11,761 nucleotides of DNA from a virus (taxonomy: Duplodnaviria > Heunggongvirae > Uroviricota > Caudoviricetes). The translations under genes were made by a program, and so were the position numbers. Below the pieces are notes generated by a model. It worked only from the letters and a program-made list of their open reading frames with translations. It did not search any database and was not told where the DNA came from. Positions 1 to 11,761 of the stretch are shown in pieces; position 1 is the first letter of the stretch; every line of letters begins with the position of its first letter. The stretch covers positions 1 through 11,761 of IMG/VR virus record IMGVR_UViG_2585427768_000001. One strand, written 5' to 3'.

Positions 1-2283
1 GCAGGGGATCCCCTGCCGTTCGTATGAACGGCGCAAAATCGTGTTGTCGAAGTTGGCTCCATTTCCCCAGACCTGAACAAAAAATTCACCGGAGTTTTCG
101 TCGATAAATTCCCGCAATTGTAACAGTGCATCATCTAACGGGATTTCATCGGTCATAATGGCAGATTGCGCTTCGCGTGATTGCTTAAGCCACCATTTAA
201 TGGTGTCCCGATCAATGACTCCGCCAGCAGTTTCCAGATCGATAGTCTTACTAAATTCCGGTCCCATATCTCCGGTTTGCGGATCGAAAAATATTGCACC
301 TATTGAGATGATCGGGGCATCAGGATTTTTTCCCATGGTTTCAAGGTCTATCATTAGATGGTCACACGTCCTGCTGGTGGATGTGATTACGTGATGACTG
401 TTCACCTTAATTGAGTGATTTGCCGTCTCGCCAGTTTCATTATCGCTATCGTGATGCTGATTGCCGCCAGTGTTCTCCTTGTGTGGATGTTCAGCGCCTT
501 CCATTTCCTCCGGATCATCTTCCTGAACTTCAACCTGATACTCTTCATCGAATGTTTCCTGGTATGTTGCGTCGCCCATCACCGCGCCACAATCAGGGCA
601 ATTGCCGCCGCCGGTCTGACCGCAGGCGGTGCAGACTTTTTCCACTTCCTGTTGCGCCACTGGTTCAGGCTGTTTCGTTTCTGGCTCGTTTTGTAACGCA
701 TTTGGGCTGTTTTGTTCCGCTTTTTGGTAGTTCCGTTCCGATTCATGCTGGTTCTGGTTTACAGAATCGCGGGTCTGGATCCCCTTAACCCATTTCGGAT
801 CATTCGGGTCGCTAATCCCTGCAACAAATTCTCCGCGAGAGGCAGCAAGCAACTTATCGGCGTCAGGCTGGCTGATATTGGCTGCCTGCATAATTTTGTT
901 TACTTCGTCAGCGGTAACTTTTACCGGCCCTGGTTGTGCGGTCGTGTCAGATGCACCAGTATTTTGTTGTGAACCTGAGTATGTACCGTTTTTGTGGGCG
1001 AAATATTCTTCTTTCGTGATTTCAGTAGCCCCGGCAGCCAGTGCCTTATCCAGACCAGAAAGTTTGTTTGCGCGACCGTATTTTTCGCCATCCTTGTCGG
1101 TGAAGAGGAAGTAGAACGGCCCCTCACGCTCTACAGATGGTTCGACTTCCACTTTGCATTCGGTTTTTTCGTTGTCCGGAATTGCCGTTTCCACTGCATC
1201 AGTTTCTGGTACTGGCGACGAGAGAGTATCAGTTGCGCTCTGATTTCTTCCTTCATCTTCAAACACGCCCTTTGTAGTCAGGTATTCAGTAATGTATTTG
1301 TTCAGTGCCACAGGGTCTTTGTGAATGTCGATCGGACGTTCACGGACAAGGCCAAAAATAGTCTGGCGGTCGTAGCGAAGGGCATCAGGCTGTTTGCGCA
1401 TTGATGCCGAGATACGCTTCCAGTCTTCGCGGTCGTTGTCGATAACTTCATTTTTTGCCCAGCGATGGATGCTGCCGTCAATGTTTCCGGCATCCACATC
1501 ACCAGGCCAGAGAGCGTAGGCCAGTTCGTCATCCAGTGTTTTCCATGTCTGCTTGTATTCGCGATGAATGGCAGCAATGACCAGGCTGATTTTTCCTGTT
1601 GAATTTTCAGTGTGCTGTTGATTGACTCTGGCGCGGGCGAGATCAACAACAGACGTGTATTTTCCGGTTTCCTTGCGTTCACCTTCGCGACGTTTTTTCC
1701 AGATGCGCATCTCTGCCTGAATTTCGGGCCATTTGGCACCAGGCTTACATTTATGCTTAACCCACCCGATGGCATGCAGCTTAAGCTCCGGATACATGGC
1801 GTTAACATCTGGCATTTTCATCAACGCTTCAACGATATGTCCGTCGAATGTTGCCATGTCTTCCTGCAACAATTCCTGTGCGCTAATAACCATATCAACG
1901 GTGATGTTTTCACATGTGTCGAACTTAACCATGACAGCGTTCTGTACTTCAGGGGCCAGCTTGTCAAAAGTGACGTTCATCGGATCGGATTCAGTCTCAA
2001 CCGGGACAAAGGAAGCAGACTCCTCATCCCAGCGGTTTTCCTGCATATATTCAGCATCCCAGGAATCGAGGGCAGGGCGGGGTATACCGGGTTTATCCTC
2101 GCAGACAAGAAATTTATAAGCGCAGTCCTGAGCAGCCGGATAATGTTCCAGGAATTGCCAGTGAAATTTTGCGCGGGCGCGACGTTCATCACCGGCTTCA
2201 ATGGCAGTGGCTACAGCGACGGCACCTTCTTCCTTTATTGCCTGTTCGTCCGGAATGGCGGCGCAAATAAAGACTTTACTCAT
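1..2283 (-). CDS. recE: RecE-like exodeoxyribonuclease VIII family protein, N-terminal 761 codons; C-terminus lies beyond the window start
   Basis: Minus-strand frame is open from the ATG at 2283..2281 (SD GAGG 9 nt upstream on the minus strand) to position 1; I scanned every plus-strand triplet in this frame and found no tta/cta/tca. Absent from the ORF track because no stop lies in the window. Translation begins MSKVFICAAIPDEQ and contains KLLAASRGEFVAGISDPNDPKWVKGIQTRD (recalled as RecE-like), a CxxC-N7-CxxC zinc-ribbon-like motif, an acidic linker, and DEDD-type exonuclease motifs (HLMIDLETMG; NGANFDNTIL). Sits upstream of racC/kilR-position genes as in Rac. Confidence 0.7.
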   Translation of the reverse strand, partial: MSKVFICAAIPDEQAIKEEGAVAVATAIEAGDERRARAKFHWQFLEHYPAAQDCAYKFLVCEDKPGIPRPALDSWDAEYMQENRWDEESASFVPVETESDPMNVTFDKLAPEVQNAVMVKFDTCENITVDMVISAQELLQEDMATFDGHIVEALMKMPDVNAMYPELKLHAIGWVKHKCKPGAKWPEIQAEMRIWKKRREGERKETGKYTSVVDLARARVNQQHTENSTGKISLVIAAIHREYKQTWKTLDDELAYALWPGDVDAGNIDGSIHRWAKNEVIDNDREDWKRISASMRKQPDALRYDRQTIFGLVRERPIDIHKDPVALNKYITEYLTTKGVFEDEGRNQSATDTLSSPVPETDAVETAIPDNEKTECKVEVEPSVEREGPFYFLFTDKDGEKYGRANKLSGLDKALAAGATEITKEEYFAHKNGTYSGSQQNTGASDTTAQPGPVKVTADEVNKIMQAANISQPDADKLLAASRGEFVAGISDPNDPKWVKGIQTRDSVNQNQHESERNYQKAEQNSPNALQNEPETKQPEPVAQQEVEKVCTACGQTGGGNCPDCGAVMGDATYQETFDEEYQVEVQEDDPEEMEGAEHPHKENTGGNQHHDSDNETGETANHSIKVNSHHVITSTSRTCDHLMIDLETMGKNPDAPIISIGAIFFDPQTGDMGPEFSKTIDLETAGGVIDRDTIKWWLKQSREAQSAIMTDEIPLDDALLQLREFIDENSGEFFVQVWGNGANFDNTILRRSYERQGIPC

Positions 2284-2375
2284 TTTGTTTTACCTCATTA
2301 CAGATTTAAGGGTGAACAAATCCCTGCCATTGCTGGCATATAAGAATGAAACCGGATATTTATTACGGAACTGTT

Positions 2376-2567
2376 TTAAAGACCTGCCGGGATTTCGTTA
2401 TTATCCTGGTGAATAACTTTATCGACCGGGTAACAGTTACCGGGAATTTTCTGTTCGGTTGCTGCAGTCACACACTCCTGCATTGTCCTGTGAACACTGA
2501 CTGCAATATCAACTGGCTCTCCGGAAACAAGAAAAACTGTCAGAACAAGTGCAAATGCTGTATTCAT
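2376..2567 (-). CDS. Hypothetical small protein (63 aa) with hydrophobic N-terminal segment; racC/ydaE-position gene
   Basis: ATG at 2567..2565 overlaps the TGA of the upstream gene (ATGA coupling), with AGGA 8 nt upstream. Product MNTAFALVLTVFLVSGEPVDIAVSVHRTMQECVTAATEQKIPGNCYPVDKVIHQDNNEIPAGL. The track's longer 2376..2621 ORF has a poorly spaced SD. Confidence 0.5.
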   Translation of the reverse strand: MNTAFALVLTVFLVSGEPVDIAVSVHRTMQECVTAATEQKIPGNCYPVDKVIHQDNNEIPAGL

Positions 2568-2752
2568 TGCCAGCATCCTTTTTGTATCGGACGTAAACGG
2601 GCCAGCATTGAAAGAATGCATATTTTATTTAATAGCTCCCGTTCGTGTTTTCTCTTGTTAATGGCATCTTCAGTAAATACAGGGTTACTGATATTGACAC
2701 CAATTTCAAAACAACCTTCAGACGTATTAACGTTTGGTAATAACGTTTCCAT
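2564..2752 (-). CDS. Hypothetical small protein (62 aa); kilR-position gene of the leftward early operon
   Basis: ATG at 2752..2750 preceded by GAGGA with 7-8 nt spacing on the minus strand; product METLLPNVNTSEGCFEIGVNISNPVFTEDAINKRKHERELLNKICILSMLARLRPIQKGCWQ; stop overlaps the start of the next gene. Confidence 0.5.
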   Translation of the reverse strand: METLLPNVNTSEGCFEIGVNISNPVFTEDAINKRKHERELLNKICILSMLARLRPIQKGCWQ

Positions 2753-3004
2753 TATCGCGTCCTCAACAATGAATTTTGTGATGCGGTGCCTGGTGCCTCC
2801 AGGTGACGTTAACCAGTTAACAATTAACGCCGGATACAGAGAATCCACCCATAACACTGTTTTTGGTTTTAACTGTTCCGCGTGCGCTCAGCCGCATTCA
2901 CCACATCACAAAATTCACTTTAAAAAGGGCGGCAGAGCAGTCACGGAGTAAAACTGATACCGCCAAACGTCACCAGAAAATTGATAACAGAGGGCGTTGC
3001 AGCG

Positions 3005-3041
3005 GGGTTGTCACTTAAGCGTATGGTCAACCTGACAACCC
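3005..3041. repeat. Perfect inverted repeat, 9-bp arms (GGGTTGTCA / TGACAACCC) with 19-bp spacer, in a 560-bp non-coding gap
   Basis: Read directly from the sequence; no flanking T-run on either strand, so not an intrinsic terminator. Candidate protein-binding site or RNA stem-loop. Confidence 0.5.
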
Positions 3042-3314
3042 GGTGTCCTCAACGGGGGAAGAAATACCCCCGCCATACTTACCGCCGCGCCATTTCGCGG
3101 ATTGCCACAACCGGAAGCGCACGGTCGACGAAAATTTAACGACAGGCTATCTATGAACCAGCTACCTCGCCGTGCGCTTTCGCGTTATGGTCTGACTTTT
3201 CAGGGAAATATCCTTTCAGTAAACTGTCAGTGCCGGATGCTCACCCGTGTCCGGCGCACGCACTCCACCTCACCCGTGGAGAACTCCTTAATCACCAACC
3301 CTCAGGAGGGTGAA

Positions 3315-3590
3315 ATGTCGACTGAAAATGATGAAATCATTAACTCCCTGATACGCCAGATTAATAATTTTGATAAAGCATTGCAACATGCTGCGGCGCG
3401 TAGTGATATAACTCTTTTAGCAATTTCATTTCTTGCATCTGTTATGGATAAAAATGAAGTCGTACGACAGAGTCTTGTTGATTATATCGACTCGCTTCAA
3501 CCCGGCACTTTCAATCATGAGAGCTTCAATCATGAGAAAGAGCATGTTAAGTCTGTAATTAATTCTCTTATTTTGAATCAAAAGAATTAA
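3315..3590 (+). CDS. Hypothetical protein (91 aa), AT-rich gene in sieB position
   Basis: ATG 3315 preceded by AGGAGG 5 nt upstream; in frame with track ORF 3102..3590, whose upstream extension is GC-rich, Arg-rich and has no SD. Product MSTENDEIINSLIRQINNFDKALQHAAARSDITLLAISFLASVMDKNEVVRQSLVDYIDSLQPGTFNHESFNHEKEHVKSVINSLILNQKN. Contains a 15-bp in-frame tandem duplication (3510..3539). Confidence 0.6.
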   Translation: MSTENDEIINSLIRQINNFDKALQHAAARSDITLLAISFLASVMDKNEVVRQSLVDYIDSLQPGTFNHESFNHEKEHVKSVINSLILNQKN

Positions 3591-3900
3591 TGCTTTTTGT
3601 TGCAAAGTAATTTTCAAGGGGTTCTATTCGAATCCCTTTCTTTTTCATTAACAAGCCAAACCCCTTATCAATGATGTCCATTAGATCCAGGAAGTATTTT
3701 TCATGTAAATCCTGGTTATAAGAGAGCTGCTTCTCTTCGTACAGCCCGATAAAGGCTCGGCGTACGTTACCGGATATATTGTCGATGGTTTCTTTTTCTA
3801 CGGTACTCAGGTCAAGAGTCGCCAGTTGAGAGCGAACCACATTCGATGCCATTTCCTGGAATGGGACTGGTAAATCTTTAAATTCCATCGTCAACCTCAT
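3568..3900 (-). CDS. Hypothetical protein (110 aa); second gene of the leftward pL-like early operon
   Basis: Track ORF; ATG 3900..3898 overlaps the TGA of the upstream 77-aa gene (ATGA coupling); alternative start MEFKDLP 12 nt downstream. The 3' end overlaps the convergent 91-aa gene by 23 bp. Confidence 0.55.
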   Translation of the reverse strand: MRLTMEFKDLPVPFQEMASNVVRSQLATLDLSTVEKETIDNISGNVRRAFIGLYEEKQLSYNQDLHEKYFLDLMDIIDKGFGLLMKKKGIRIEPLENYFATKSINSFDSK

Positions 3901-4133
3901 CAGTCAGTGTTTCTGGTTAACCAGCGACGTGCGCCAGCTTCAGTTTTAAACGTTTTGCTTCTGGTATATGTCATCGCGGTAAACGTGCCGTCCTGGTTGG
4001 GAAACACGCCGCATACCAGAGATTCGTTGTTGCCAAGCTCGATAGTATCCATGCTGACCTCATTTCCCCTTAACGCCGGGGTAGCGGAACAAAAACCTGC
4101 TGCATAGTTATTAAAGTTGAACCCTGCCGTCAT
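3900..4133 (-). CDS. Hypothetical protein (77 aa); first gene downstream of the leftward pL-like promoter (ydaG/ydaF position)
   Basis: Track ORF; ATG 4133..4131 with GAGG 9 nt upstream on the minus strand; product MTAGFNFNNYAAGFCSATPALRGNEVSMDTIELGNNESLVCGVFPNQDGTFTAMTYTRSKTFKTEAGARRWLTRNTD. Confidence 0.5.
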   Translation of the reverse strand: MTAGFNFNNYAAGFCSATPALRGNEVSMDTIELGNNESLVCGVFPNQDGTFTAMTYTRSKTFKTEAGARRWLTRNTD

Positions 4134-4232
4134 GTTCTTACGCCTCGGGCTGGCTACTTAACCCCTGACCACTGCCTGGTAACTCGAGGTATTGCCCTGT
4201 ATTGTGTGGGACGGGATGGGTTGGTATGGGAA

Positions 4233-4276
4233 AACTATAGGAAATGCCTAATTACTTGTCAATAGGCTATGCCTAA
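4233..4276 (-). promoter_or_regulatory. Leftward pL-like sigma70 promoter with operator palindrome (OL-like)
   Basis: On the minus strand: -35 TTGACA (4262..4257), 17-nt spacer, -10 TATAGT (4239..4234). Palindrome TAGGCTATGCCTA at 4263..4275 and GCCTA half-site at 4246..4250. Segment 4255..4276 is the exact reverse complement of 4899..4920 on the other side of racR. Confidence 0.6.
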
Positions 4277-4370
4277 TAATTTGGGCGCAACCTAATAGGT
4301 GATGGTTTGTGGGAGAGGTAGTAGGAGTTAACTAACGGGAACTAGGAATTTCCCGTCGGACCATATAAGT

Positions 4371-4847
4371 TTAAGTTCCTGTCTTGGTGATGTTCTGGCT
4401 TTTCCGTTTTGATTCTTGATTTTTCAGATAGTTAGCTACCTTCATTTCCATTGCGGCAATGTAGGCGCGAACGTCATGATCAACCCAACTAGGCTCCGTA
4501 GCATTTCCAGATAAGATGAAAGCCACAATTGCTCTTTTTTCATCAGAGGCGGCTTGATAAAGGCTGTTTATGTCTAAAAGTTCACTTTTTGTATCTGAAG
4601 TGGATGGGGTTGGTATGGGGTATTCGTTAAGCCCCCAATGCTCTGGACCAACCACATCAGAAAAGAAACGCCATAGTTCTGGAAGTTTGTCTTTACTTAT
4701 CGAACCTTTCTTAATCCAGTCATGGATTGATGGTGGTTGGACTTTGAAATGACGTGCGATTTCCGCCTTTGATTTGACGGCTCCTGATGCAATTTTTTTG
4801 TTAATGGCCTGCTCTATCGCTCGGCCTAAGTCTTTACCACTAAGCAT
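4371..4847 (-). CDS. racR: Prophage repressor, RacR-like (158 aa, HTH)
   Basis: Track ORF MLSGKDLGRAIEQAINKK...; HTH-like segment KSKAEIARHFKVQPPSIHDWIKKG; divergent from the ydaS/ydaT-like genes, flanked by operator repeats. Size and organisation match Rac racR from memory, not verified by search. Confidence 0.7.
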   Translation of the reverse strand: MLSGKDLGRAIEQAINKKIASGAVKSKAEIARHFKVQPPSIHDWIKKGSISKDKLPELWRFFSDVVGPEHWGLNEYPIPTPSTSDTKSELLDINSLYQAASDEKRAIVAFILSGNATEPSWVDHDVRAYIAAMEMKVANYLKNQESKRKSQNITKTGT

Positions 4848-4898
4848 TGCTTAATAGTCTCCTATGCGCATCGCGTTAGGCAATCCCTACTCTCGATG

Positions 4899-4944
4899 TA
4901 TTAGGCATAGCCTATTGACAATTTCATTAGGCTAAGCCTAATAT
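4899..4944 (+). promoter_or_regulatory. Rightward pR-like sigma70 promoter with two operator palindromes (OR-like)
   Basis: -35 TTGACA 4915..4920, 18-nt spacer, -10 TAATAT 4939..4944. Palindromes TAGGCATAGCCTA (4902..4914) and TAGGCTAAGCCTA (4928..4940), centres 26 bp apart, overlapping the -35 and spacer. Confidence 0.6.
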
Positions 4945-4971
4945 TGTTGCGTGTTTTTTGGAGTTCATTCG

Positions 4972-5295
4972 ATGAAAAAAGATAACTATTCATTCAAACG
5001 AGCTTGTGCTGTTGTCGGTGGGCAATCAGCAATGGCTAGGCTTTTAGGTGTATCTCCTCCAAGCGTAAATCAATGGATCAAAGGTGTACGTCAGTTACCT
5101 GCTGAGAGATGTCCTGCGATTGAACGAGCAACAAAAGGTGGTGTCCTGTGTGAAGAACTTCGTCCTGATGTTGATTGGACATACTTACGACGCTCGTCAT
5201 GTTATTCGCAGAATATGTCGATGAAGCAACCAAATGACGAAAACGATCATACCCGAAGCATCAAGAGGCAAATGATTCATGAAAATCAAACATGA
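4972..5295 (+). CDS. ydaS: Cro/YdaS-like HTH protein (107 aa)
   Basis: ATG 4972 with GGAG 8 nt upstream; in frame with track ORF 4951..5295. Product MKKDNYSFKRACAVVGGQSAMARLLGVSPPSVNQWIKGVRQLPAERCPAIERATKGG... has the YdaS/Cro-like HTH pattern; first gene from the pR-like promoter. Confidence 0.7.
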   Translation: MKKDNYSFKRACAVVGGQSAMARLLGVSPPSVNQWIKGVRQLPAERCPAIERATKGGVLCEELRPDVDWTYLRRSSCYSQNMSMKQPNDENDHTRSIKRQMIHENQT

Positions 5296-5704
5296 GCACA
5301 TCCGCATGGCGATGAATGCCTGGGCATACCCTGATGGTGAGAAAGTTCCTGCAGCTGAAATAGCCCGGACTTATTTCGAACTGGGGATGACGTTCCCTGA
5401 ACTGTACGACGACAGCCATCCGGAAGCCCTGGCCCGTAATACCCAGAAAATTTTCCGTTGGCTGGATAAAGACACCCCTGATGCTGTTGAAAAAATGCAG
5501 GCTCTGTTACCGGCGATCGAAAAGGCGATGCCGCCTTTGCTGGTGGCCCGTATGCGCAGCCACAGTTCTGAATATTACCGTGAGATCGTCGAACGGAGGG
5601 ATCGGCTGGGGAAGGATGTCGATGATTTTGTTGCGTCAGCGGTTGTTTTGTATGACCAGATGAATCGCGGCGGCCCGGCAGGGAATGCTGTGGTGATGCA
5701 CTAA
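5279..5704 (+). CDS. ydaT: YdaT-like protein (141 aa)
   Basis: Track ORF MKIKHEHIRMAMNAWAYPDGEKVPAAEIARTYFELGMTFPELYDD...; overlaps the 3' end of the ydaS-like gene by 17 nt; position and size match Rac ydaT. Confidence 0.65.
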   Translation: MKIKHEHIRMAMNAWAYPDGEKVPAAEIARTYFELGMTFPELYDDSHPEALARNTQKIFRWLDKDTPDAVEKMQALLPAIEKAMPPLLVARMRSHSSEYYREIVERRDRLGKDVDDFVASAVVLYDQMNRGGPAGNAVVMH

Positions 5705-5726
5705 AAGCACGGTGTTCGGGGGTTTT

Positions 5727-6689
5727 ATGAGCAGCAAGCTTCATGGTCTTGTCTGGGAAGGGTGCGCCTTCACCGGCATGATCTTATCCAGGGTGGCGGT
5801 TATGGCCCGTCTTGCAGACTACAGCAATGACGAGGGCGTGTCATGGCCTGCCATTGAAACTATCCGGCGTCAGATCGGTGCAAGAAGTGAATCCACAGTG
5901 AAATCGGCTATTGCAGAACTGGCGAAAGAGGGCTGGCTGACGAAGGAAGAGCGTAAGGTCGGTGGGCGTAATGTAAGCAATATCTATCGGCTTAATGTGG
6001 AAAAACTCGAAGCAGCTGCGGCGGCGGCGCGTGAGTCATATAAACCGAAAAGAAAAATTAGCCCGGCAAAAAATGACCCGTTAACAGTTGACCCGTCAAA
6101 TATTGACCCCTCAACGGTTGACCCGTCAAATTTTGATGGATCAACTGTTGATAAAAAACTGCCGATTAGGGGGGCGATGATTAACCCCGATCCGTCAGTA
6201 TTAAAACCTGATCCGTCAGATAAAAGATCTTCTTGTCCGGACGCTTCGCAACCGGACCCGCAGACGGCTGAACAGGATTTTTTAACCCGACACCCTGACG
6301 CGGTTGTGTTCAGTGCGAAAAAACGCCAGTGGGGAAGTCAGGAAGATTTGGTGTGCGCACAGTGGATCTGGGGACGAATCGTGAGTCTTTACGAGCAGGC
6401 GGCCAGCGATGATGGCGAGATCACTAGACCGAAAGAACCCAACTGGACAGCATGGGCCAATGACGTTCGCACAATGCGGATGCTGGATGGCAGAACTCAC
6501 AGACAAATTTGTGAAATGTTTGGGCGTCTCCAGCGGGATTCGTTCTGGGTAAAAAACATCATGAGTCCGGCAAAACTCCGGGAAAAATGGGATGAACTGG
6601 TTATCCGCCTGGGGCGTTCGCCTGCGCAGCGTTGCGTGAATCACATTTCTGAACCGGACACTGAAATTCCGCCGGGCTTCAGGGGGTAA
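5727..6689 (+). CDS. Phage replication initiator, O-like (N-terminal winged-helix DNA-binding domain), about 320 aa
   Basis: ATG 5727 with GGGGG 4 nt upstream (track uses GTG 5712). N-terminus MSSKLHGLVWEGCAFTGMILSRVAVMARLADYSNDEGVSWPAIETIRRQIGARSESTVKSAIAELAKEGWL resembles phage replication-initiator HTH domains. A DPS-repeat linker coincides with DNA-level iterons, as in lambda O. Confidence 0.65.
   Translation: MSSKLHGLVWEGCAFTGMILSRVAVMARLADYSNDEGVSWPAIETIRRQIGARSESTVKSAIAELAKEGWLTKEERKVGGRNVSNIYRLNVEKLEAAAAAARESYKPKRKISPAKNDPLTVDPSNIDPSTVDPSNFDGSTVDKKLPIRGAMINPDPSVLKPDPSDKRSSCPDASQPDPQTAEQDFLTRHPDAVVFSAKKRQWGSQEDLVCAQWIWGRIVSLYEQAASDDGEITRPKEPNWTAWANDVRTMRMLDGRTHRQICEMFGRLQRDSFWVKNIMSPAKLREKWDELVIRLGRSPAQRCVNHISEPDTEIPPGFRG
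6073..6148. repeat. Five tandem 15-bp-spaced iterons (core TTGAC-N2-GTCAA), putative prophage ori
   Basis: ATGACCCGTTAA (6073), TTGACCCGTCAA (6088), TTGACCCCTCAA (6103), TTGACCCGTCAA (6118), TTGATGGATCAA (6133), then an A-rich tract ATAAAAAA (6149..6158) and two more GATCCGTCAG copies (6189, 6211). Confidence 0.6.
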
Positions 6690-6729
6690 GTGTTAATTTC
6701 TGGTCATGAGGTAATTTTCAGGAGGGCTT

Positions 6730-7152
6730 GTGGCAAAAGTTTTTACACAAGAAGAGCGGGAAAAAATTAAAGGGCAGGTTGTTGAACTCGTACGCCAGAG
6801 TGGGCGCGAGACGTTACGACAACTGGAAACTAAAACTGGGGCAACAAGATATCTGATGAGCGTTCTGGCCAGAGAGCTGGTTGCCAGTGGCGATGTATAC
6901 AACTCTGGTTACGGGTTATTCCCGTCTGAACAGGCGCGTAAGGACTGGCAAAATGCCCGTAAAAAGCTCTCAAGGGCAAAGCTGAAGAAACCATCTGCGG
7001 TTGATCCGGACCTTATCTGGTCATTACCTGACGGAGAAATACGTCGCTACGACAGGCGTCAGAACATAATCTGTCGCGAGTGCCGGAAGAGCGAAGTTAT
7101 GCAGCGCATATTGTCGTTTTATCAGGGTAATTTTCAGAAGGTGCTGTTGTGA
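6730..7152 (+). CDS. Hypothetical protein (140 aa) downstream of the O-like initiator; no Walker A motif
   Basis: GTG 6730 preceded by AGGAGGG 3 nt upstream; product MAKVFTQEEREKIKGQVVELVRQSGRETLRQLETKTGATRYLMSVLARELVASGDVYNSGYG..., with CxxC near the C-terminus (CRECRK). Confidence 0.6.
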   Translation: MAKVFTQEEREKIKGQVVELVRQSGRETLRQLETKTGATRYLMSVLARELVASGDVYNSGYGLFPSEQARKDWQNARKKLSRAKLKKPSAVDPDLIWSLPDGEIRRYDRRQNIICRECRKSEVMQRILSFYQGNFQKVLL

Positions 7153-7257
7153 GCCAAATTAACAATCGGAACTTCGTGAAGAGAAAGCATAATCCAAATC
7201 TGAATAATTAAGTTCAGCACTGTAAATAAAATTTAATCCTTAACTGGAGGTATATCT

Positions 7258-7470
7258 ATGTCAAATACACAGAAAATTATTAACACTGAAAAATATAACG
7301 AGTGGGTGAAAAAATTCTCTGAACAGATTTTTAAAATTACTGGCGACGAGAATGTGGCAAAAAATGAATTAGAACCGTGGACACCTGAAGGAAACGCACC
7401 AAATTATTGCTGGTGGGAAGTTGATCCGGTTGATGCTGCAAATGAAGCCATGAGTTACCACAACGATTAA
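7258..7470 (+). CDS. Hypothetical small protein (70 aa), AT-rich accessory gene
   Basis: ATG 7258 with GGAGG 7 nt upstream; product MSNTQKIINTEKYNEWVKKFSEQIFKITGDENVAKNELEPWTPEGNAPNYCWWEVDPVDAANEAMSYHND. Confidence 0.6.
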   Translation: MSNTQKIINTEKYNEWVKKFSEQIFKITGDENVAKNELEPWTPEGNAPNYCWWEVDPVDAANEAMSYHND

Positions 7471-7479
7471 TGTCGGGAG

Positions 7480-7497
7480 GCCGCCCGAAAGGGCGGT
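7480..7497 (+). other. Stem-loop with GAAA tetraloop (CCGCCC-GAAA-GGGCGG) between an SD-like GGGAGG and the next start codon
   Basis: Read from sequence at 7481..7496; GGGAGG at 7475..7480; next ATG at 7503; no T-run after the stem. Confidence 0.5.
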
Positions 7498-7502
7498 AAG
7501 AA

Positions 7503-7721
7503 ATGACTACATTATTCAGAAAAGAATATCCGCAAAAAAGTAGAGCGACAGAATTTTTGTTTCTCATTCTGTTTATCGTATTGATGATACCGATATCCCC
7601 TCTAATTTTTGTCTGGGCAATCGGGAAAATAATTGAGCCAGTTACTGAATTGTATACCGACGTTGTATGGGCGTCGTTCAACACACTGCACAATAAAATT
7701 AATCCGTATAAGGAAAACTGA
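7503..7721 (+). CDS. Hypothetical single-pass membrane protein (72 aa)
   Basis: Track ORF; hydrophobic stretch FLFLILFIVLMIPISPLIFVWAIG; stop TGA 7719..7721 lies 1 nt before the next ATG. Confidence 0.55.
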   Translation: MTTLFRKEYPQKSRATEFLFLILFIVLMIPISPLIFVWAIGKIIEPVTELYTDVVWASFNTLHNKINPYKEN

Positions 7722-7722
7722 T

Positions 7723-7986
7723 ATGGCAACTTTGACAAAAAAAGAACGGGCATGGTTGAACGAATTACAGGAAGTTCTTGATCGCTGTCCATCACCGAAA
7801 AAAATTGGCTTTTACACCATTGGCGATAAAAGCATTTACCTGTATGACCTACGCCGCATGGATGAAATCATGGAGGCTCTTGATAATCGTTCGTCGATGG
7901 ATTGGTGTGTTGCTGTTCATGATATGAATGCAGGGTTTGATGAAAAGATTTTGTTCCCCTCATCAGTTGAAAGCACTGCGGGTTAA
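7723..7986 (+). CDS. Hypothetical protein (87 aa)
   Basis: ATG 7723 with AGGA 8 nt upstream; in frame with track ORF 7633..7986; product MATLTKKERAWLNELQEVLDRCPSPKKIGFYTIGDKSIYLYDLRRMDEIMEALDNRSSMDWCVAVHDMNAGFDEKILFPSSVESTAG. Confidence 0.6.
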   Translation: MATLTKKERAWLNELQEVLDRCPSPKKIGFYTIGDKSIYLYDLRRMDEIMEALDNRSSMDWCVAVHDMNAGFDEKILFPSSVESTAG

Positions 7987-7996
7987 GGAGTAACAC

Positions 7997-8164
7997 ATGA
8001 CCACTATTACCAAAGAACGTATTGAATTGTTCATTAAAAACCCGCTTGAAAACGGGCTTACCCGTGGTGAACAAATGGAACTGGCACGGATTGCGCTGGC
8101 ATCGCTGGAAGCAGAGCCGGTTGTGTTCTGGTTTGAAAAATATCAAGAAGGGGCTACGGCATGA
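7997..8164 (+). CDS. Hypothetical small protein (55 aa), short paralogue of the downstream 114-aa protein
   Basis: Below the track's 60-aa limit; found by hand. ATG 7997 with AAGGAG 6 nt upstream; product [55 protein letters not shown]; stop TGA 8162..8164 overlaps the next ATG (ATGA). Confidence 0.5.
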
Positions 8165-8505
8165 CGACTTTTACCAGAGAGCAGTTAATAGCTCACGCAG
8201 AGGAGACTATTGAAGCACAGAGACTGTGCATACCGGGCACAATCGACCATGACATCATCCGCACATATAAGATGGATATTGCTGTTCTGGAAATCGCACT
8301 GGTATCGCTGGCAGCAGAGCCAGCCGGTAAATTGCATGAATACAAACCAGTGGGATATCAGCGTCTGGTCGATGAGTTAACCATGCTGGTAAAGCAGTTA
8401 ACCTGGCAACTGAGGAAAGCGAAGCCAGACTGCAAATTACCGGATAAGGCGATGAGTTATCTGGAGCGGAACGGACTGATAAGCGTGGAGGATATTTTAC
8501 GATGA
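8161..8505 (+). CDS. Hypothetical protein (114 aa), paralogue of the upstream 55-aa protein
   Basis: Track ORF; shares the N-terminal MTTxT(K/R)E and the motif I-A-L-x-S-L-x-A-E-P with the 55-aa protein; DNA-level similarity about 80% over about 25 nt (8093..8119 vs 8304..8330). Confidence 0.6.
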
Positions 8506-8585
8506 CCTGGCCTGAAGCATTAACAACGGTAGGAATTGCGATGGCGGTGGCGCTGGTGGTGTATTCGATTTGCCGCTGGGGATAA
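8502..8585 (+). CDS. Possible hydrophobic micropeptide (27 aa), translationally coupled to the 114-aa gene
   Basis: ATG 8502 overlaps the upstream TGA (ATGA); product [27 protein letters not shown]; no strong SD; too short to judge from sequence alone. Confidence 0.3.
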
Positions 8586-8796
8586 AAACGGTTTGCGGGA
8601 AAAGGAGAGTTAAGTAGAATTGCAGCGGGTGCTTGAGGCTATCTGTCTCAGGCATGAACACCAAAAGGCAGATAGAGAAAAGCCCCAGTTAACATTACGC
8701 GTCCGGCAAGACGCTTAACATTAATCTGAGGCCATATCTATGCTCTACACACGTAGGTTAGCCTCTTACGTGCCGAAAGGCAAGGAGAAGCAGGCT

Positions 8797-8952
8797 ATGA
8801 AGCAGCAAAAGGCGATGCTAATCGCCCTGATCGTCATCTGTTTAACCGTCATTGTGACGGCACTGGTAACGAGGAAAGACCTCTGCGAGGTACGAATCCG
8901 AACCGGCCAGACGGAGGTCGCTGTCTTCACAGCTTACGAACCTGAGGAGTAA
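8797..8952 (+). CDS. hok: Hok/Gef-family type I toxin (51 aa), HokD/RelF-like
   Basis: Product MKQQKAMLIALIVICLTVIVTALVTRKDLCEVRIRTGQTEVAVFTAYEPEE matches the Hok family signature; AAGGAG 9 nt upstream of ATG 8797. An in-frame upstream ATG at 8740 with its own GAGG SD gives the track's 70-aa form. Confidence 0.85.
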   Translation: MKQQKAMLIALIVICLTVIVTALVTRKDLCEVRIRTGQTEVAVFTAYEPEE

Positions 8953-9020
8953 GAGACCTGGCGGGGGAGAAATCCCTCGCCACCTCTGATGTGTCAGGCA
9001 TCCTCAACGCACCCGCACTT

Positions 9021-9049
9021 AACCCGCTTCGGCGGGTTTTGTTCTTTTT
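9021..9049 (+). terminator. Rho-independent terminator after hok
   Basis: AACCCGC-TTCG-GCGGG followed by TTTTGTTCTTTTT; GC stem, tetraloop and T-run read directly. Confidence 0.7.
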
Positions 9050-9196
9050 GTGAAAAAAATTCCCTTAAAGGAGATTTTTTTAACTAAAAAGGTTTACTTT
9101 GCTTTCGTATATGGTAAATTTTAGGAATTAGAATTTAAGCGCCCATCAGGCTTGCGTTAGGCAAGTCTGCTAAATCAACAAATTGAGGATAAAATC

Positions 9197-9556
9197 ATGG
9201 CACTCACTGAATTCGGTAAGGCCGTTAGAAAAGCGAGGATCGATACTGACAGTACTCTTCTGACTATGTCTCAAGAACTGGGCACTACGCCAGCGTTTCT
9301 TAGCGGTTTAGAAACTGGTAGCAAAAAAATACCTCTGAAGTGGGTTAAGAAGATTGATTCTTACTTCAAGGCCAAAGGTGTAGAAATTGAAGGGTTACAG
9401 GAGCTAGCGGCAGTTGCGAATGACTCAGTTCCAGTAAACGGTTTGTCTCAGCAACAGAAAATGCTTGTAGCGGGATTCGCTAAGTCGCAGTTTACGCCGG
9501 AACAGCTAAAGAGTTTTGCAGATTTATTGCAAAAGATTAATAACAATGAGGGGTAA
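9197..9556 (+). CDS. XRE-family helix-turn-helix transcriptional regulator (119 aa)
   Basis: ATG 9197 with GAGG 8 nt upstream; N-terminal HTH_3-like segment LTEFGKAVRKARIDTDSTLLTMSQELGTTPAFLSGLETG followed by an extension of about 60 aa. Confidence 0.75.
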   Translation: MALTEFGKAVRKARIDTDSTLLTMSQELGTTPAFLSGLETGSKKIPLKWVKKIDSYFKAKGVEIEGLQELAAVANDSVPVNGLSQQQKMLVAGFAKSQFTPEQLKSFADLLQKINNNEG

Positions 9557-9558
9557 TT

Positions 9559-10035
9559 ATGTATCAAATGAGAGGTAACAGGGTGTCACCGATGCAAGAA
9601 GAAGAAATAGCCTACAGAGCTATAAACTTCTGTAATGCTATTGGTCTTACAGCCTCAAAGCGCAAAAGAAAGCGTTATGATATGTTCTTTGAAAGCCTGT
9701 CAATTTATGGGGTTACTCTTGACGTCAGGACCGACAAAGAGTGGGAGGCTCTGACGTATGATCTAACTATCGGACATTGTGACCCCGCTTCTCTAACAAT
9801 TACGGTTCCCAATAAAATATATGTGAATGCTTGCCTTGGGGAAGAGCATGCACTTGCTGTTATCTTCCACGAGCTAGGTCATTTGCTTCTTGGACACAAA
9901 GCAGTTTTACACTTTTCAGTTAAAGAACCTACTCGTATTGAGGATGCAGAATGGCAGGCAGATACATTTGCGGATATCGTACTGGAAACAATTGGCGTGA
10001 GAACACAACAGATGTCGTTCGATTTTTATATGTAA
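9559..10035 (+). CDS. ImmA/IrrE-family zinc metallopeptidase (158 aa; HExxH)
   Basis: ATG 9559 is 2 nt after the HTH gene stop, with GAGGGG 5 nt upstream; HExxH motif in HELGHLLLGH plus a downstream E/D-rich segment, typical of the ImmA/IrrE family. Confidence 0.75.
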   Translation: MYQMRGNRVSPMQEEEIAYRAINFCNAIGLTASKRKRKRYDMFFESLSIYGVTLDVRTDKEWEALTYDLTIGHCDPASLTITVPNKIYVNACLGEEHALAVIFHELGHLLLGHKAVLHFSVKEPTRIEDAEWQADTFADIVLETIGVRTQQMSFDFYM

Positions 10036-10036
10036 A

Positions 10037-10060
10037 AGCCCTGCGCTAACAGGGCTTTTA
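10037..10060 (+). terminator. Probable intrinsic terminator after the peptidase gene
   Basis: AGCCCTG-CGCTAA-CAGGGCT followed by TTTTA; the T-run is short. Confidence 0.5.
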
Positions 10061-10164
10061 GGGACGGAAAGTGCGCTAACACATTCCGTAGTGTATGGAG
10101 ATAATCCAATCACAACACTTTTTGTAGACAAGCGAAGTGTAGTGGTTCTCCCAACAAAGTGCAA

Positions 10165-10182
10165 CCTGTGTGGATTCACAGG
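10165..10182. promoter_or_regulatory. Inverted repeat CCTGTG-N6-CACAGG upstream of the Cys-rich ORF; candidate operator
   Basis: Perfect 6-bp arms read directly; lies 21 nt upstream of ATG 10203. Confidence 0.35.
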
Positions 10183-10202
10183 TGAGCAGGGAAAACGAAA
10201 TC

Positions 10203-10352
10203 ATGGCAATGGGTACCTGTCGCAAATGTGGCTGTCCATGTGAGATCATTTTTCGCTACTCTGTGTGTGTAGATGGTGTAATGCGCCACGCGAAAAAAGG
10301 GAAGCCTTTCCCGATCCCACTTTGCAGTTGTAGTGGCAAGCACGCAGCTTGA
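10203..10352 (+). CDS. Cys-rich mini-protein (49 aa; 7 Cys), putative metal-binding
   Basis: ATG 10203 with AGGGAA 9-10 nt upstream; product MAMGTCRKCGCPCEIIFRYSVCVDGVMRHAKKGKPFPIPLCSCSGKHAA; the track's 60-aa form starts at GTG 10170 inside the inverted repeat. Confidence 0.45.
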   Translation: MAMGTCRKCGCPCEIIFRYSVCVDGVMRHAKKGKPFPIPLCSCSGKHAA

Positions 10353-10366
10353 TATTCAGTACTGAC

Positions 10367-10398
10367 AAAACCCGCTTCGGCGGGGTTTGTTTTTTTTT
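10367..10398 (+). terminator. Rho-independent terminator after the Cys-rich ORF; core identical to the hok terminator
   Basis: AAAACCCGC-TTCG-GCGGGGTTT followed by GTTTTTTTTT; the 16-nt AACCCGCTTCGGCGGG is identical to 9021..9036. Confidence 0.7.
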
Positions 10399-10467
10399 GG
10401 CATTCAGGTTTACAATTCGCACGTCAGCCTGAACAACTGGCACCTGCTGCGCCAGCAGAGAAAGACG

Positions 10468-10746
10468 ATGGCGCACAATACCAAATCACACAATTCTGAT
10501 AATTCAGCTGTCTTTGCCAGCAGGCACGGGCGGCGTTCCCGCACATTCAAATCTGATTGGTACCAGCATCCCCCATGTACTGAAGAACAAGCTGAATGGC
10601 TAATTCAGTGCTACCGCAGACACGGATACGAGATTAAGAAAGCCCTCAGCCTCGATTATCGTCACTGGATAATCTCCGTCAGGCTTCCTTACTCTGAACG
10701 CCCACCGCGTCCGTCCCGCACATTCCAGCAACGCATCTGGAGGTAA
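10468..10746 (+). CDS. Hypothetical protein (92 aa), rem-position gene
   Basis: In frame with track ORF 10387..10746 (which starts in the terminator T-run); ATG 10468 with a weak GAGAAAG SD; product MAHNTKSHNSDNSAVFASRHGRRSRTFKSDWYQHPPCTEEQAEWLIQCYRRHGYEIKK... Confidence 0.45.
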   Translation: MAHNTKSHNSDNSAVFASRHGRRSRTFKSDWYQHPPCTEEQAEWLIQCYRRHGYEIKKALSLDYRHWIISVRLPYSERPPRPSRTFQQRIWR

Positions 10747-10747
10747 C

Positions 10748-11291
10748 GTGCGGGTATTACTTCGACCTGTTCTGGTACCGGAACTCGGGCTGGTGATCGT
10801 TAAGCCGGGCCGTGAATCCATGCCGGTATTCCACAATACCCGGGTACTGGTGGAGCCGGAACCGAAAAGCATGCGTAATCTGTCGTCCGGGGTCGTTCCT
10901 GCCGTTCGCCAGCCGCTGGCGGAGGATAAATCATTACTGCCATTTTTCAGCGACGAACGAGTGATTCGTGCTGCTGGTGGCGCTGGCGCATTGTCTGACT
11001 GGTTACTGCGCCATGTTAAATCCTGCCAGTGGCCACACGGCGATTATCACCACAGTGAAACCGTCATTCACCGTTATGGTACCGGCGCAATGGTGTTGTG
11101 CTGGCACTGCGACAACCAGCTGCGCGACCAGACCTCCGAATCACTCGGGCAACTTGCTCACCAAAACCTGTCTGCATGGATGATTGACGTCATACGCCAT
11201 GCAATGAATGGCTCGCAGGAACGGGAATTATCGCTGGCTGAATTATCCTGGTGGGCGGTCCGCAATCAGGTGGCGGACGCGCTACCGGAAG
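10748..11291 (+). pseudogene. DUF968-like (YdfU-like) Cys/His-rich protein gene, 3' part removed by IS insertion
   Basis: GTG 10748 with GGAGG 4 nt upstream, overlapping the upstream stop; Cys/His motif CQWPHGDYHH...CWHCDNQ; the frame runs into the IS terminal repeat at 11292, so the track ORF tail after ...ADALPEV is IS-derived. Confidence 0.55.

Positions 11292-11761
<470 letters not shown>

Follow-up and report, generated by a model that had tools for sequence, protein, structure and literature searches.

A hokD allele with its full leader: evidence that a Rac-like lambdoid prophage of Escherichia coli carries an intact hok/mok/sok locus

Two members of the hok/mok/sok family of type I toxin-antitoxin systems provide the experimental background against which any new copy has to be read. 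In plasmid R1, where hok/mok/sok (parB) has a demonstrated role in post-segregational killing, mutagenesis established that the start codon and the Shine-Dalgarno (SD) sequence of mok are required and defined the latter as a GAGG motif; TATGAT is validated there as the -10 hexamer of the hok promoter, and the logic of the tac, ucb and fbi elements holds (PMC9841398). In the Stx2 phages 933W and Sp5, the hokW-sokW pair has likewise been validated by experiment: HokW is toxic, the 51-residue protein being sufficient alone, and SokW is the antitoxin that it needs, a 71-nt antisense RNA with a promoter of its own and a dependence on both RNase III and Hfq. Northern blots detect it, and a mutation of its -10 hexamer abolishes antitoxin activity and unleashes HokW (PMC8621323; Takada et al. 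2021). [quoted passage not shown] Transcription of an unstable Sok that represses mok/hok by way of cleavage by RNase III has been demonstrated for both loci (PMC8621323; PMC9841398). The toxin of R1 is only about 44% identical, a figure reported for HokW against Hok (PMC8621323). A further relative, relF (hokD) of E. coli K-12, is co-transcribed with relBE (PMC3598666).

The locus described here has its place among these systems. The window, by which we mean the whole stretch of 11,761 nt that was analysed, contains at 8592-9049 what we read, with a probability of about 0.93, as a type I toxin-antitoxin cassette of the hok/mok/sok family, intact in all its parts, a hokD allele that kept its full leader and has a close relative in hokW-mokW-sokW of 933W/Sp5 (Table 1). 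The Rfam family hok/sok (RF01794) matches positions 8627-8802 over the full model with 117.1 bits (E = 1e-26), which exceeds the gathering score of 59, and the Pfam family HOK_GEF (PF01848) matches residues 25-66 of the 70-residue open reading frame (E = 2.9e-23). When the window was read (8400-9300) and translated, all parts of the locus were found intact, with no IS insertion, frameshift or stop. A first-pass annotation, made from the letters of the sequence, had already recognized hok here, together with an upstream start resembling that of mok and an antisense gene resembling sok. This core reading was correct; the parts match the annotated mokW and sokW as well as mokC and sokC. The system is an already known one, a textbook cassette that brings little new biology.

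The cassette belongs to the early-right region of an E. coli prophage that is lambdoid and Rac-like. Positions 1-11291 of the window are 99.9% identical to prophages of this kind, with a gene order that begins with int, xis, an exonuclease gene, dicB, DicF, racR, ydaS/T-like genes and replication genes, and continues with small open reading frames, hok, an HTH gene plus ImmA/IrrE, DUF968, rusA and the gene of antiterminator Q.

Table 1. Features of the hok/mok/sok locus, in positions of the 11,761-nt window.
Feature	Positions	Strand	Remarks
hok mRNA promoter (inferred)	8592..8620	+	-10 TAGAAT 8615-8620, weak -35 (TTTGCG/TTGCGG) 8592-8598
Full-length hok (mok-hok) mRNA, about 421 nt (predicted ends)	8627..9047	+	RF01794 start, tac motif, terminator
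tac (translational activator element) GGGUGCUUGAGG	8627..8638	+	paired with fbi when the full-length RNA is folded (MFE)
Leader stem-loop, 10 bp	8639..8675	+	8639-8648 pairs with 8666-8675
Metastable 5' hairpin, 3' arm	8645..8655	+	pairs with 8629-8639; predicted in nascent and truncated transcripts
sok antitoxin RNA gene (putative), 71 nt	8678..8748	-	single-stranded tail at the 5' end, then a long hairpin; ends in GGGGCUUUU
ucb (upstream complementary box / anti-SD of mok)	8680..8688	+	pairs with mok SD region 8726-8732
mok Shine-Dalgarno GAGG	8728..8731	+	invariant in 38/38 sequences
mok reading frame	8740..8952	+	70 codons, in frame with hok, common stop; homologous to annotated mokW, mokC
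sok promoter (predicted)	8755..8783	-	-35 TTGCCT 8783..8778, 17-nt spacer, -10 TAACCT 8760..8755
dcb (downstream complementary box) GCCUC	8761..8765	+	open form: pairs with mok SD GAGGC 8728-8732 (sokT hairpin)
hok Shine-Dalgarno AAGGAG	8782..8787	+	within hairpin 8759-8797
hok toxin gene	8797..8952	+	51 aa; HOK_GEF match; identical to K-12 HokD/RelF
fbi (fold-back inhibitory element) CCUCAACGCACCC	9002..9014	+	pairs with tac
Intrinsic terminator of hok mRNA	9021..9049	+	stem 9021-9038, T run after; conserved in K-12 hokD

The predicted transcript was delimited at its 5' end by the start of the RF01794 model together with the invariant tac, and at its 3' end by the terminator. Between the -10 hexamer of the hok promoter and the conserved +1 that opens tac (GGGUGCUUGAGG) there are 6 nt, the spacing found for TATGAT of R1 and TATAAT of hokC, and the promoter segment is identical in 933W. 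Folded as a whole, the 421-nt RNA reaches -173.2 kcal/mol at its minimum free energy (MFE), with z = -7.9 against shuffles. In this fold tac and fbi form a 12-bp duplex that contains a 1-nt bulge and is worth -19.8 kcal/mol, the mean of shuffles being -10.6, and ucb positions 8682-8688 cover the mok SD region at 8726-8732. The hairpin that holds the hok SD folds at -15.7 kcal/mol. The alternative partners of tac are ucb and the segment 8645-8655: short 5' fragments fold either as the metastable hairpin or as a tac/ucb stem (8627-8634:8680-8686, -24.1 kcal/mol) in which the 10-bp leader stem is nested. The long-range pairings typical of hok mRNAs, to which the first-pass annotation had pointed, tac/fbi, ucb/mok-SD and tac/ucb, are all present in folds of the 8627-9047 transcript. 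The stem-loop that it had placed at 8649-8685 was displaced from the actual one, as that segment folds at only -2.9 kcal/mol. The pairing of the mok SD with dcb was taken from the Rfam alignment. In the 3'-truncated mRNA, where a tac/ucb structure was expected as the MFE, the metastable hairpin was kept and the enforced tac/ucb form was 2.1 kcal/mol less stable; because the open form lies above the MFE by this amount, thermodynamic prediction alone does not show the switch.

These structures were compared between relatives. When each species was represented by one genome, a scan yielded 53 related loci; 38 distinct intact hok mRNAs, belonging to Escherichia, Kluyvera, Photorhabdus, Pantoea, Citrobacter and Pseudocitrobacter, were aligned from tac to fbi. 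The leader structures on which the first-pass reading depended are conserved across these 38 loci. For the full-length structure, 88.7% of the alignment cells are paired against 43-52% when the partners are slid, a control that is biased because the structures tested derive from the window sequence, and 29 pairs display compensatory changes. The 12-bp tac/fbi duplex is found in every one of the 38 homologues, again with compensatory changes, G12:C becoming A12:U and the pair at nucleotide 4 of tac being UA in 24 sequences and CG in 12. That nucleotide, U in Escherichia and C in Photorhabdus and Pantoea, covaries in the same proportions (UA:24, CG:12) with its partner in fbi and with its partner in the metastable hairpin, a double covariation that is the hallmark of an element taking part in more than one structure. 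In Photorhabdus the 3' half of the tac/fbi duplex seemed broken, an alignment artefact of a 1-nt bulge that folding of the duplex sequence by sequence resolved. The metastable hairpin is paired in 95.7% of cells (30-52% when slid) and the leader stem in 92.9%, each with three compensatory pairs. Between ucb and the mok SD, one GC and three CG pairs hardly vary or do not vary at all, being kept in 36-38 of 38 sequences, and covariation is seen at the adjacent pair (AU:26/GC:12). The tac/ucb pairing is formed at 99.2% across the 38 sequences and SD/dcb at 100%, with five pairs out of five in each sequence that has letters at both positions; being invariant, these two pairings provide no evidence from covariation. 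The helix of the hok SD hairpin (alignment columns 158-161/180-183) is paired at 99.3%. The anatomy of the locus and its conservation are in this way demonstrated.

A structurally complete cassette could still be a silent or decaying relic lodged in a cryptic prophage, neither killing its host nor taking part in phage release. Such a reading may be pleaded from the fate of other chromosomal copies: those of K-12 have been inactivated by IS elements or by truncation, and for the hokA, hokB and hokC loci it is reported, as summarized in a preprint, that they can bring about neither post-segregational killing nor rifampicin activation (bioRxiv 10.1101/2025.08.07.668861). The toxin itself gives some ground for suspicion, as it has Tyr47, encoded by UAC (with its A at 8936) followed by G, at a place where Cys, produced by TadA editing, reportedly matters for toxicity in relatives. 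We nevertheless hold this explanation to be rather unlikely. Every regulatory element of the window copy is intact and structurally conserved, no IS, frameshift or stop interrupts it, and hokW-sokW, 92% identical, is active in its native prophage (PMC8621323). Furthermore, of 5426 E. coli genomes that are complete, 4214 (about 78%) have kept the leader (8600-8800) at a coverage of at least 80%, often in multiple copies, with a median of two.

The cassette contains two nested reading frames. The in-frame ATG at 8740 and its GAGG, which the first-pass annotation had singled out, are real, and translation confirms that the 70-residue frame ends at 8952; 57 nt, that is 19 codons with no stop between them, separate this ATG from that of hok. 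The GAGG lies 8 nt 5' of ATG 8740 and the AAGGAG 9 nt 5' of ATG 8797. The assignment of the shorter product to HokD/RelF was well founded: RefSeq genomes with identical DNA annotate the 51-residue frame as hokD (WP_000813254.1), and the same protein is found in K-12 C600. It had further been suggested that such an arrangement may differ from classical hok/sok. It does differ from that of R1, where mok is out of frame with an offset of 58, but there is nothing unusual in it. Indeed, the mok ATG is placed 57 nt before that of hok, in frame, in 26 of the 38 loci, among them those of hokD/W type and hokC type and those of Photorhabdus, Pantoea and Citrobacter; the offset is 58 nt (+1 frame) in nine loci, which are those of R1 type, of P1-like plasmids and of Kluyvera, it is 56 nt in two, and the upstream start is absent from one. 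Judging from sequence comparison, in-frame mok is the commoner arrangement of chromosomal and prophage loci, long annotated as mokW in 933W and as mokC/hokC in MG1655. The distance is thus confined to 56-58 nt in 37 of 38 loci, while the frame has switched at least three times and is shifted in 11 of them, and a Hok frame of 49-52 residues is always retained, whatever the frame of mok. This drift fits the result obtained with R1, that translation of mok matters and not its product (PMC9841398).

These observations bear on two proposals that would give a more prominent role to the long frame. In the first, the 70-residue Hok, with its basic N-terminal extension of 19 residues, would be a functional isoform in its own right and not a by-product of translational coupling. 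If this were true the extension might, for example, alter membrane insertion or toxicity or endow the protein with a modulatory role, and the locus would encode two toxin isoforms in a ratio set by Sok; we find this quite improbable. Conservation of amino acids is not independent evidence for selection on the in-frame extension, because dcb, the Sok promoter and the hok SD all lie in the stretch that encodes the conserved peptide 'RLASY.PKGKE'. Which protein products arise from an in-frame mok is a general and minor question for the whole family, not one specific to this locus. The second proposal takes the frame that starts at 8740 as the single real toxin gene, ATG 8797 being a mere internal methionine and coupling between mok and hok being dispensed with. 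An uninterrupted frame, a good SD and the in-frame geometry of 26 out of 38 loci agree with it. It is very unlikely, as the Pfam Hok/Gef domain begins only at residue 25 of the long frame, a strong SD (AAGGAG) serves ATG 8797 separately, 11/38 loci have the upstream start in another frame (offset 58 or 56) and 1/38 lacks it while the 49-52-residue frame is always kept, K-12 hokD retains the 51-residue frame only, and the 51-residue HokW expressed alone is toxic (PMC8621323).

On the opposite strand, the candidate antitoxin gene of the cassette has the expected layout of a cis-antisense Sok: a predicted promoter within mok, a 5' end that would overlap the start of mok, and a tail followed by a terminator hairpin. 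Its coordinates (8748 to 8678) were transferred from the annotation of sokW; transcription would start 7 nt downstream of the -10 hexamer, and the 5' end falls 9 nt inside mok, as does that of sokC in MG1655. Alignment of the leader with known sok genes, another of the checks that the first-pass annotation had proposed, places the putative RNA in register with the annotated 71-nt SokW, and also with SokC. It is SokW apart from six differences, all located in the first 17 nt; as the 5' tail differs at 6/17 nucleotides, its kinetic properties need not equal those of SokW. The RNA folds at -31.8 kcal/mol (z = -4.65) as a hairpin plus UUUU. By eye, and without anchoring of the position, a YUNR U-turn is visible in the Sok target loop of several relatives, for example CUGA in 933W. 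Inspected in the same manner, the target loop of the window, CUCUAC, displays no obvious U-turn of this type.

The hexamers of the minus-strand promoter had been located correctly, at positions that match the annotated 5' ends of sokW and sokC. Alone they are weak, with 7 of 12 consensus positions, and the region 8450-9150 contains 13 equally good sites against 7.3 +/- 3 in shuffles. A generic sigma-70/terminator scan calls neither the sok nor the hok promoter; its only calls are the hok terminator and one unrelated site on the plus strand. Since the scan calls neither promoter, our claims do not rest on the quality of the hexamers; support for the Sok promoter is comparative and, by way of sokW, experimental. 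The Sok promoter is retained in register in 38/38 loci, with a spacing of 17 nt, TTGNC(C) and mostly TANNCT, R1 displaying TTGCGC-17-TATCCT at the same columns of the alignment. The idea that translation of Hok starts at 8797 on its own account, and that the antisense promoter and ATG 8740 arose by chance and regulate nothing, could invoke hexamers no better than many chance sites and uncalled by the scan, together with a strong hok SD, and is yet extremely improbable in the face of an invariant mok SD, of a mok ATG at 56-58 nt in 37/38 loci, of a Sok promoter in register in all of them, of a hok SD sequestered in a conserved hairpin, of sokW and sokC annotated at the same place, the former seen on a northern blot and its promoter necessary, and of the requirement for the start and SD of mok established by mutagenesis in R1 (PMC9841398).

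It remains to consider how the intact cassette would work. The dynamics of this particular copy, its transcription, processing, coupling and toxicity, we infer from R1 and hokW, and the locus most likely operates as R1 hok/sok and hokW-sokW do. A constitutive promoter would produce a stable mRNA of about 421 nt starting at 8627. In the nascent RNA, tac would be held in the metastable hairpin (8629-8639:8645-8655). Once the RNA is full length, tac would pair with fbi (9002-9014), ucb (8682-8688) would mask the mok SD, and the hok SD would remain locked in its own hairpin; such an mRNA would be translationally silent and would not bind Sok. Slow trimming of the 3' end would then remove fbi, so that tac could pair with ucb, and the sokT hairpin would present both the SD and the start codon of mok. 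Ribosomes initiating at mok (8740) would open the hairpin of the hok SD, and Hok would be made through translational coupling; as mok is in frame here, ribosomes that initiated at mok would themselves make a 70-residue, N-extended Hok. The unstable 71-nt Sok, a minus-strand RNA (8748 to 8678) with a promoter of its own, would pair across the mok start, and RNase III would cut the duplex, keeping the toxin off for as long as Sok is resupplied. Hok, when made, would insert in the inner membrane and depolarise or lyse the cell. For a prophage, the likely roles would be retention, and lysis with release of phage after induction, when Sok vanishes, as was demonstrated for hokW-sokW.

Among described systems, hokW-mokW-sokW (AF125520) is a close relative; a search of a phage collection gave 92.4% DNA identity to 933W over positions 8502-9024 of the window. 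In the 933W record mokW and hokW share their stop and mokW is 57 nt longer, hence in frame, as in the window, and sokW is a 71-nt antisense RNA with its 5' end 9 nt inside mokW, in the same register as here. The hok promoter, tac and fbi are alike, both loci belong to lambdoid prophages, and both have a Sok hairpin that is 20 nt longer owing to a GCGUC...GACGC insert. Of the 51 residues of the toxin, four differ, and these are clustered at the C-terminus (TAYEPEE in the window, VDYESEK in HokW). The 3' flank and the terminator also differ, and the host prophage is here Rac-like and devoid of Stx, with the locus inserted between the replication genes and the HTH/ImmA pair, unlike in 933W.

The R1 locus shares with the window its architecture and the same set of alternatives (tac/fbi, ucb/SD, tac/ucb and the metastable hairpin), a Sok promoter that is placed and spaced alike, and an identical GAGG as the SD of mok. 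Its mok is also made of 70 codons, 19 of them before the ATG of hok, and yet, with an offset of 58 nt, it is in the +1 frame relative to hok, whereas the offset of 57 nt in the window keeps the two in frame; the Sok hairpin of R1 is also shorter. The chromosomal hokC (gef)/mokC/sokC locus, which matches RF01794 with 118 bits, reproduces the layout of the window: in MG1655 mokC (16751-16960) and hokC (16751-16903) share their stop, mokC being in frame and 57 nt longer, and sokC, on the opposite strand, overlaps the start of mokC by 9 nt. It is about 82% identical to the window, over part of the locus only, its leader is 20 nt shorter, and the K-12 copy has lost fbi because IS186 is inserted 20 nt downstream of the hokC stop.

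A further comparison is with hokD (relF) of K-12, which belongs to the relBEF operon of the Qin prophage and encodes the same 51-residue protein as the window. The absence of a relBE partner had been put forward in the first-pass annotation. Neither relB nor relE has a match in the window (tblastn, E > 1, with values of at least 1.5), so that this part of the claim stands; it is no anomaly, as it is relBE-hokD of K-12 that is truncated. The window is not organized as a relBEF operon, for it has a full leader and no relBE. RefSeq/PGAP labels only the 51-residue 'hokD' CDS in these prophages, and the omission of mok and sok can give the impression of an orphan toxin or of the relBEF context of K-12; the practical value of the present analysis lies in this matter of annotation. 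The prophage neighbourhoods are similar, hokD being followed in both by genes for a DUF968 protein and an antiterminator. A three-way alignment with 933W shows that the homology of K-12 hokD to the window begins about 14 nt 5' of the hok ATG and runs, as nearly identical DNA, through fbi and the terminator. Upstream, the K-12 copy has neither the hok promoter, nor tac, ucb, the mok start, the Sok gene and its promoter; the sequence of relE abuts instead, and RF01794 finds no match in relE-hokD of K-12. Because homology stops there, with relE upstream, the K-12 arrangement is a 5'-truncated derivative, and the locus of the window the complete ancestral form.

The segment of the window at 8733-8752, which codes for the 5' tail of Sok and at the same time forms the target region that surrounds the mok start, is where the locus reaches its maximum of variability among close relatives of the hokD/W type, with a mean pairwise identity of 0.68, as against 0.80 in the 3' UTR and 0.87-1.00 in the remaining segments. 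This concentration of change would fit a divergence of Sok specificity between several hok/sok copies of one genome. The Sok terminator stem also varies, by an insertion: at its tip, at window 8698-8714, stands an extra hairpin (GCGUC and GACGC closing the loop CGGCAA). This hairpin, of about 16-20 nt, is carried by the hokD/W, P1-like and Kluyvera loci; the hokC, R1 and Photorhabdus loci lack it. Sok is 71 nt long with the hairpin and about 59-64 nt without.

The mok frame, too, differs between locus types. In two hokC loci, L019 of E. ruysiae and L021 of E. whittamii, the mok offset is 56 nt. There mok stops after 19 codons, its TGA sharing bases with the start codon of hok (ATGA), and this arrangement is a third mok geometry, of a putative termination-reinitiation type.

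The RF01794 model (157 nt, with the hok AUG as its 3' limit) represents the sense strand of hok mRNA, although Rfam names it 'sok antitoxin', and in MG1655 it matches the mokC/hokC strand, opposite the annotated sokC. An RF01794 strand call therefore gives the strand of the hok leader, not that of the Sok RNA.

Features of the window, with one match in locus L061
Feature	Position	Strand	Remarks
DicF antisense sRNA	2927-2978	-	Rfam RF00039, 76.7 bits, full length
27-codon ORF, unannotated	8502-8585	+	GGAGGA SD
RF01794 match, window	8627-8802	+	Rfam model
Helix-turn-helix gene (119 aa), then 158-aa ORF	9197-10035	+	directly 3' of hok
RF01794 match, locus L061	502-654	-	Rfam model

Upstream of hok, the ATG of the 27-codon ORF overlaps the stop of the preceding 114-aa ORF (ATGA), while its 3' end lies about 7 nt upstream of the proposed hok -35; its hydrophobic product could be a small membrane peptide. 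Downstream, the ORF that follows the helix-turn-helix gene has a Peptidase_M78 (ImmA/IrrE) domain, and the RefSeq CDS uses a later start, giving 147 aa rather than 158 aa. The two genes thus differ from relBE and form a pair of the antirepressor type, whose Peptidase_M78 member is interrupted by an IS1 in strain E7476. The best whole-window matches align to 11291 only, leaving the last ~470 nt (11292-11761) uncovered, and this common stop suggests a mosaic junction within the DUF968 gene region. Elsewhere in the window DicF adjoins dicB, as in Qin/Rac-type immunity regions.

UACG is the recognition motif of TadA. The Tyr47 codon UAC and the G that follows it (window 8935-8938) are unchanged in all 38 aligned loci, and editing at A8936, if it occurs, would recode Tyr47 to Cys. 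According to a preprint (10.1101/2025.08.07.668861), A-to-I editing of the hokC, hokD and hokE mRNAs creates Cys46 (numbering of the preprint), a residue required for a disulfide.
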